The notes beneath the pieces were generated by a model. That model worked only from the letters and a program-made list of their open reading frames with translations, did no database searches and was not told the origin of the DNA. A DNA stretch of 64,000 nucleotides, taken from assembly GCF_013167455.1 (NCBI RefSeq), contig NZ_CP038328.1; one strand, given 5' to 3'. The DNA is from Escherichia coli O157:H7. GTDB lineage: Bacteria > Pseudomonadota > Gammaproteobacteria > Enterobacterales > Enterobacteriaceae. Positions 52,575-52,673 of this stretch are shown here, in pieces. Positions within the stretch are counted from its first letter, which is position 1. Each line of letters begins with the position of its first letter. Both the position numbers and the translations under genes were made by a program.

Positions 52575-52673
52575 TGGCATCTGAATCGATCATGGTTTGG
52601 CATCCATTTCCGATCACTGTTTGGCATCACAATCGATCACGATTTGGCATGCTTCCGCTCATTGATTGGCATC
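52575..52673. repeat. Array of five TGGCAT-containing direct repeats at 22-24 bp spacing, three with CGATCA (GATC) submotifs
   Basis: TGGCAT at 52575, 52598, 52622, 52645 and 52667; units like TTTGGCATCACAATCGATCACGA. Confidence 0.55.

Follow-up and report, generated by a model that had tools for sequence, protein, structure and literature searches.

A repeat array next to terW in Escherichia coli O157:H7 is very probably the orphan left end of an ISSso4-like element of the IS21 family

In this work, we focus on a short array of direct repeats that lies just downstream of the terW gene of Escherichia coli O157:H7, in a window of 64,000 nucleotides (64 kb; contig NZ_CP038328.1), which is the whole stretch of DNA that was analysed. 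This array is very probably the orphan left terminal region of an insertion sequence (IS) of the IS21 family, of the ISSso4-like kind, made of a terminal 5'-TG followed by repeats of ~23 bp on which the transposase IstA would dock. It occupies positions 52568..52676 of the + strand, and it corresponds to IS positions 1-109 of the five-unit variant of this element, beginning with the terminal 5'-TG. The 109 bp that remain are most likely an inert scar, not self-mobile and decaying.

The repeats of the array are regularly spaced. On the + strand, TGGCAT starts exactly at positions 52575, 52598, 52622, 52645 and 52667, and CGATCA is found within the array at 52587, 52611 and 52634. Tandem Repeats Finder reports the region 52575-52674 with periods of 23, 24 and 47 and a top score of 124, and a repeat search of the array returns a 21-nt unit in four copies with spacings of 24, 23 and 22. 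A sequence-only reading had described five TGGCAT with a period of 22-24 bp, three of them with CGATCA, and both the positions and Tandem Repeats Finder agree with this description. The hexamer occurs 35 times on the + strand of the 64 kb, which corresponds to an expectation of 0.054 per 99 nt, and the Poisson probability of finding at least five of them in 99 nt is ~4e-9, or ~2e-4 for the whole window. It also forms the densest hexamer cluster of the 64-kb window once homopolymers are excluded. The bounds of the module could be refined to 52568 (TGCAAAA...) and 52676, and its letters on the + strand are TGCAAAATGGCATCTGAATCGATCATGGTTTGGCATCCATTTCCGATCACTGTTTGGCATCACAATCGATCACGATTTGGCATGCTTCCGCTCATTGATTGGCATCCTG.

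Each unit of the array, 22-24 bp long, consists of two blocks, (A/T)TGGCA(T) and then, 5-9 nt further on, CGATC. The corresponding two-block motif, [AT]T[GC]GCA-N5-9-CGATC, is found in the 64-kb window only within the array, where it matches at 52574 in the terminal, L1-like unit 1 (ATGGCATCTGAATCGATCATGGT, 52574..52596), at 52597 in unit 2 (TTGGCATCCATTTCCGATCACTGT, 52597..52620) and at 52621 in unit 3 (TTGGCATCACAATCGATCACGAT, 52621..52643), all of them on the + strand like the two units that follow. Unit 4 (TTGGCATGCTTCCGCTCATTGA, 52644..52665) appears decayed when it is compared with the full-length copies at loci L007 and L002, as its GATC core has become GCTC through an A to C change at 52658, where both copies read CCGATCA. 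Unit 5 (TTGGCATCCTG, 52666..52676) is truncated to its first block, and an IS66-family element abuts it. Past this break, the full-length IS copies read ...CCTGCCAGTCACTCCGGG and their relatives ...CCTGTCGATCAC, and the window reads GTGTCGTTACGG. An ORF of 49 aa at 52574-52723 was considered as a coding sequence and dismissed, since it runs from the IS21 tip into the IS66 end, two modules that are unrelated. A promoter scan gave a single sigma-70-like match, at 52699-52726, which is inside the IS66-family element, and none in the array.

We compared positions 52500-52770 by megablast with 5,426 complete E. coli genomes and 72,556 plasmids. The matches fall into three classes, namely the terW flank, the array and the left end of the IS66-family element, and each of them is found separately elsewhere. 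The first one (query positions 1-68, to 52567) is the 3' flank of terW, and it is the sole part that is common to many terW-bearing plasmids of the IncHI2 type. The second one (query positions 69/76-177, i.e. 52568/75-52676) is the array alone, which is also found in chromosomes and plasmids without a nearby terW or IS66-family element. The third one (query positions 177-271) is the left end of the IS66-family element, which is found alone at other sites. As the matches are separable at 52568 and at 52676, the array is a separate piece of DNA.

On the terW side, the boundary of this piece is precise. The terW gene (52036..52503, + strand) is an ORF of 155 aa, annotated as terW in O157:H7 EC4115 and in many other records, and its 3' flank (52504..52567, + strand) is the last stretch held in common with the ter loci of the IncHI2 type. 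This flank contains a terminator-like hairpin at 52515-52538 (AGACCGGGG...CTCCGGTTT) with a T-rich tail to 52548, which lies 12 nt past the terW stop codon and upstream of the IS21 insertion point, and which is kept in IncHI2 plasmids. In the alignment with the IncHI2 plasmid pEc21617-310, the two sequences are identical through ...GGCGTGA (52567) and unrelated beyond. The module of the window starts with its TG at 52568, the exact place where the IncHI2 homology stops, and the array thus begins 64 bp past the terW stop codon. In IncHI2 plasmids (locus L005, from 1569 onward), terW is followed by a gene with a VWA domain and by a TerD-family gene. Both genes are absent from the window, which means that the ter cluster of the island is cut exactly at the IS21-family insertion (52568). 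When the IncHI2 sequence that follows terW was sought elsewhere in the window, only three spurious matches of 38-42 bp came out. On the other side of terW, upstream of the gene, a 15-bp tandem repeat (2.7 copies, consensus TGACGCAAAAAGCCA) is found at 51687-51726, inside a gene with a DUF4236 domain.

These comparisons bear directly on the idea that the repeats could be an operator, bound by the adjacent winged-helix protein TerW in order to regulate the ter genes. This idea draws on the proximity of the two, the array starting so close to the terW stop, and on the HTH-type family matches of TerW, which are weak and both below the curated cutoffs. We regard it as extremely improbable. Indeed, the terW loci of the IncHI2 type match only to 52567 and then diverge, the array being absent from them. 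Among the 1669 plasmid records that match any part of 52500-52770, a coverage of at least 80% is reached in only 4. The array is moreover joined to istA in hundreds of records that lack terW, and in the window it lies downstream of terW and beyond the terminator-like hairpin. The operator that the sequence-only reading had envisaged is therefore abandoned, given that the IncHI2 locus L005 has no two-block motif and that the motif does not co-occur with terW across terW loci.

The reading that we favor, that of an IS21-family left end, comes from the copies in which the element is complete. On plasmid pLH09-a-E (L002), the array directly precedes istA (511 aa) and istB (251 aa), which NCBI labels as IS21 family and 'ISSso4 family'. 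This element is 2639 bp long (4971-7609), it starts with TGCAAAATGGCAT and ends with GGAATACGCA, and it carries six left units. The remnant of the window is 94% identical to it. An even closer copy is that of plasmid NZ_CP104501.1 (L007), an element of 2615 bp with the same five-unit form as in the window and with full-length istA-istB, istA being annotated as frameshifted. Its left end is identical to the 109 bp of the window at 106 positions out of 109, and of the three substitutions, one (52658 A to C) is the change that removes GATC from unit 4. The full-length copies start with TGCAAAATGG and end with GGAATACGCA, i.e. they have TG...CA termini. Clean target duplications of 4-6 bp flank two of the five intact copies examined (the 4-bp AAGC in L002 and GCTAAG in L007), and the other three have none. 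As istA, istB, the right end and a target duplication are missing in the window, the identification rests on 97% identity over 109 bp.

The proteins of the intact element match the models of the IS21 family. IstA reaches 285.8 bits on NF033546, the model of the IS21 family transposase (cutoff 160), and IstB reaches 257.8 bits on NF038214 (cutoff 200) and matches Pfam IstB_IS21 at 1e-60. IstA also matches the structures of IS5376 IstA (8B4H and 8Q4D) with E=3e-14, the latter protein being distant and ~110 aa shorter. Over the 10 kb of locus L002, the two-block motif is found only at the tips of the IS, with five forward matches on the left and two inverted ones on the right. The sixth left unit has a degenerate inner block, CAGTC, and next to the two inverted matches the right tip carries a terminal unit that is more degenerate. 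Once the right end is reverse-complemented, it aligns with the left end over ~75 nt.

This left end is continuous with the start of istA in 332 records of the E. coli collection (247 genomes) and in 248 plasmid records. Across the window and L001, L002, L003, L006, L007, L008, L009 and L010, there are at least 7-9 distinct left flanks, and the blast of the E. coli collection gave up to 34-35 places per genome. The many different left flanks show that the element is mobile. The copies that are 97-100% identical to the remnant bear the label 'IS21-like element ISSso4 family' on IstB, and also on IstA in E. albertii. Elements of the ISSso4-like kind are listed under the IS21 family (PMC3072379), and ISSso4 is listed among plasmid accessory modules (PMC6361801). 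These listings place it on enterobacterial plasmids and islands. Judged by its sequence, the array is a textbook end of the IS21 family, and the element is already catalogued as ISSso4-like, a name that follows the NCBI labels, the exact member being ISSso4, ISKox3 or another. Out of the three options given by the sequence-only reading, that of an undefined transposon end is the one that holds, and it can be given a family, since the array matches the IS21-family tip found upstream of istA-istB.

The way in which such an end could work is best considered in the light of IS5376. In the IS21 family, the terminal inverted repeats are built from several direct repeats (L1/L2, R1/R2), and each repeat contains two conserved blocks ~10 bp apart that are read through the major groove by HTH-2 and HTH-1 of one IstA monomer (PMC10122671). 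The binding of IstA to the repeats has been shown for IS5376, and an IstA tetramer pairs two ends, with its catalytic subunits on the outer repeat and its structural ones on the second (PMC10122671). Integration needs two complete repeats, IstB is essential to it, and two left ends can be used by IstA in vitro (PMC10122671). By analogy with the IS5376 structure, each repeat of the intact ISSso4-like element would offer TTGGCA(T) on the side of the tip and CGATC inside, approximately one helical turn apart. Since the design is the same as in IS5376, TTGGCA and CGATC may be the two blocks contacted by the HTH domains, and from their position, the tip-proximal TGGCAT is most likely the HTH-2 site and CGATC the HTH-1 site. 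On the outer repeats of the two ends, the bound IstA molecules would then come together as a tetramer, which would pair the ends, cleave the DNA at the terminal CA and, aided by the IstB ATPase, carry out the insertion of the element. The extra inner repeats (4-6 in total on the left, ~3 on the right), which lie between the tip and istA, probably serve IstA as accessory sites or for autoregulation.

The likeness with IS21 (L1-L3/R1-R2) and IS5376 (L1/L2, R1/R2; 8B4H, 8Q4D) extends to the TG...CA termini, the multiple direct repeats that are inverted between the ends, the two blocks per repeat about one turn apart and the place of the repeats upstream of istA-istB, and the NCBIfam IS21 models are passed. 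There are differences too. The ISSso4-like left end has 4-6 repeats, whereas there are two in the IS5376 structure, and its IstA is 511 aa long instead of ~400 aa. In comparison with IS21 proper (present in L007), the ISSso4-like inner block CGATC is a Dam site, whereas the ends of IS21 do not contain GATC. As for ISSso4 and the full ISSso4-like copies, the window holds only 109 bp of what they contain, the left tip. A more remote likeness can be drawn with the ends of phage Mu (bound by MuA) and Tn7 (bound by TnsB), which also have a TG...CA tip, transposase sites of ~22 bp set about two turns apart and a left/right asymmetry. The tandem HTH recognition of IS21 has been called analogous to that of Mu/Tn7 (PMC10122671). 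However, there is no sequence similarity with these ends, the transposases belong to another subfamily, and the helper is IstB rather than MuB/TnsC.

The other systems that come to mind are the iterons of plasmid origins (pSC101, R6K, F, P1), which are also direct repeats of ~20-23 bp, phased at about two turns and recognized by one binding protein. GATC-rich sequence is also known near some origins. The array could then be a set of iterons or a centromere-like site coming from the origin or the partition locus of a plasmid, for which one can invoke its regular period of 22-24 bp, its GATC repeats and the fact that the ter genes of the island are common to IncHI2 plasmids. We nevertheless give this origin next to no probability. 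In the contexts examined, the array has no rep or par gene as its immediate neighbour, and one finds instead istA-istB or IS debris. The array comes without an AT-rich region or DnaA boxes, it moves together with istAB as the tip of the element, and the full elements carry inverted copies of it 2.5 kb away, at the other IS tip, as well as target duplications for some copies. Its sites vary too, both in chromosomes and in plasmids, the latter belonging to many incompatibility types. The centromere-like or origin remnant of the sequence-only reading thus lacks any rep/par linkage and any fixed place in a replicon backbone. Its broader notion of protein-binding repeats can be kept in part: it would hold, by analogy with IS5376, for the design of a transposon end, and it fails for an iteron or partition role, with no rep/par gene adjoining.

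Coming back to the IS21-family left end, its design is well kept among the relatives of the element, but the number of its units is not fixed. In relatives whose IstA is 66-89% identical (Klebsiella indica, Serratia, Buttiauxella, Rahnella, Enterobacter, Citrobacter), 4-6 units are found at the same place, with a GATC in almost every unit. Using GATC as the anchor, 40 distinct units were extracted, across which a C is found at -1 in 97% and an A at +4 in 82%, and the spacers are variable. In Citrobacter sp. 18056 (L021 ~1350-1500), whose IstA N-terminus is 66% identical, the outer block reads TTCGCA or TCGCG in all four units and CGATC is kept, and this change of the outer block is possibly a case of co-variation between the transposase and its site. 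Among near-identical E. coli copies, the number of left units is 4 (pEntH10407, L003), 5 (the window, L001, L006, L007) or 6 (L002, L008, L010). The left ends that we compared (L003 4980-5090, L007 3001-3109 and L002 4971-5102) are such that whole units of 23 bp have evidently been gained or lost, by what their sequences suggest to be recombination between repeats.

In this ISSso4-like subgroup, the inner block CGATC is present at 5-6 left and 3 right sites, and it is kept in all the relatives examined while the spacers and even the outer block drift. This raises the question of a connection with the Dam methylase of the host. Coupling of transposition to the passage of the replication fork through Dam is known for IS10, IS50 and IS903. 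One may imagine that Dam methylation gates the binding of IstA in ISSso4-like elements, so that transposition or istA autoregulation would be coupled to the passage of the fork. We hold this to be rather unlikely. In the literature that we searched, no paper links IS21-family elements with Dam. If such a gating were true, it would act in the intact element through a whole array of methylatable transposase sites, and for the window, the three orphan GATC would be ordinary methylated sites.

On its inner side, the remnant is truncated by the IS66-family element, which is ISEc49-like (52677..58104, + strand). The latter is recognized from its shared left end GTGTCGTTACGG, from the family matches of tnpA/tnpB and from the EC4115 annotation. 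Three IS66-family copies have this common left end, starting from GTGTCGTTACGG (52677), and different flanks behind it. The right terminus, as read from the sequence, is ...CTGACGACAC at 58104. The tnpC gene of this ISEc49-like element is split by an inverted IS682-like element, also of the IS66 family, at ~54364-56800 on the minus strand. Just inside the right terminus and downstream of tnpC, two tandem direct repeats of 150 bp, 87% identical, are found at 57796-58095.

The contiguity of the two elements could make one think that the array is in fact a set of subterminal repeats of the IS66-family element. The array does abut its left end (52676/52677) in 585 records of the E. coli collection. 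Yet all the listed matches with a coverage of at least 80% carry the same terW context, which fits the inheritance of one junction, and the copies of L022 and L023 start at GTGTCGTTACGG behind unrelated upstream sequence, without the two-block motif. The tie between the array and the neighbouring IS66-family element was checked in this way and it comes undone, as independent IS66 copies do not have the array. We thus attach only a negligible probability to it.

With the array assigned to the IS21-family element, the junctions can be read as a succession of events. In a first step, the IS21-family IS would have inserted 64 bp past the terW stop, at what is the end of the IncHI2-type homology. 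The IS66-family element would then have entered at IS position 109/110, and in a third step the rest of the IS, i.e. istA, istB and the right end, would have been lost. The IS682-like insertion into the IS66-family element would have come after the IS66-family insertion. The loss is complete in the window, where the full 2.6-kb IS, used as a blastn query, matches only 52575-52676 (IS positions ~1-109), istA, istB and the right end being absent. The outer IS66-family element has no target duplication, its 8-bp flanks being GCATCCTG on one side and GGTTTGTA on the other, which indicates that what is missing of the IS21-family element disappeared later, through a deletion or a recombination, and was not merely displaced. 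The intermediate form, in which the terW flank would be followed by the array and istA, was sought with a chimeric query of 577 nt in the E. coli genomes and the plasmids, and no record reached a coverage of 80%. The terW/array/IS66 junction is present in 583 of the 5,426 complete E. coli genomes, and it is at least 99.6% identical among the full-coverage matches listed. From these sequences, the junction fits a single ancestral event that would have been inherited together with the ter island.

Other contacts between elements of the two families were noticed along the way. IS66-family elements are also found near ISSso4-like copies in L008 and L003. On the chromosome of E. coli B-2207 (L024 3704-6358), an ORF of 885 aa annotated as 'IS66 family transposase' starts at the istA start of an ISSso4-like element and may, from its sequence, be an istA::tnpC chimera. 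The IS21 left array of that locus is cut short at ~position 28 by an element of the IS4 family. Residues 6-70 of IstA (L002 5203-6738), its N-terminal HTH region, match NF038385, the model of the IS66 accessory TnpA, with 54.7 bits and E=9e-15, below the cutoff of 150, and this similarity suggests that the IS21 IstA and the IS66 TnpA have a common DNA-binding domain.

Does this orphan end still have any activity? An incoming ISSso4-like IstA might bind the array, which would then act as a decoy, or as an aberrant end for transposition or deletion that reshapes the ter island. This is compatible with the IS21-remnant reading and differs from it only on present-day activity. In its favor, the tip is undamaged, as are units 1-3, and IS5376 needs no more than two complete repeats to integrate in vitro. 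IstA can also use two left ends in vitro (PMC10122671). Intact relatives are common on E. coli plasmids. On the other hand, the O157-type chromosomes among the matches listed carry neither a further left end nor a further istA 5' region, and the high identity of the junction among the listed full-coverage records gives no sign of an ongoing rearrangement. One GATC core is moreover mutated. A still active end is, on balance, very unlikely, although we find it less so than the operator, plasmid-site or IS66 origins.

In terms of new biology, the remnant brings little, and the array is already known in kind. Its first interest is that a mis-annotation is averted, as what appears to be an iteron or an operator beside terW is IS debris. 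The remnant is also a precise scar, as the first base of the IS (52568) is the point where the EHEC-type chromosomal ter island stops being homologous to the ter cluster of IncHI2 plasmids. This scar gives the order of the events, with the IS21-family element first, then the IS66-family element at IS position 109/110 and then the IS682-like one, together with the loss of the remainder. The junction, carried by the 583 genomes mentioned above, can be used as a lineage marker. Finally, the unusually long left array of these elements, with its 4-6 units, its variable number of units and its GATC within the units, provides a lead on the recognition of DNA by IstA and on a possible control of the element by Dam.
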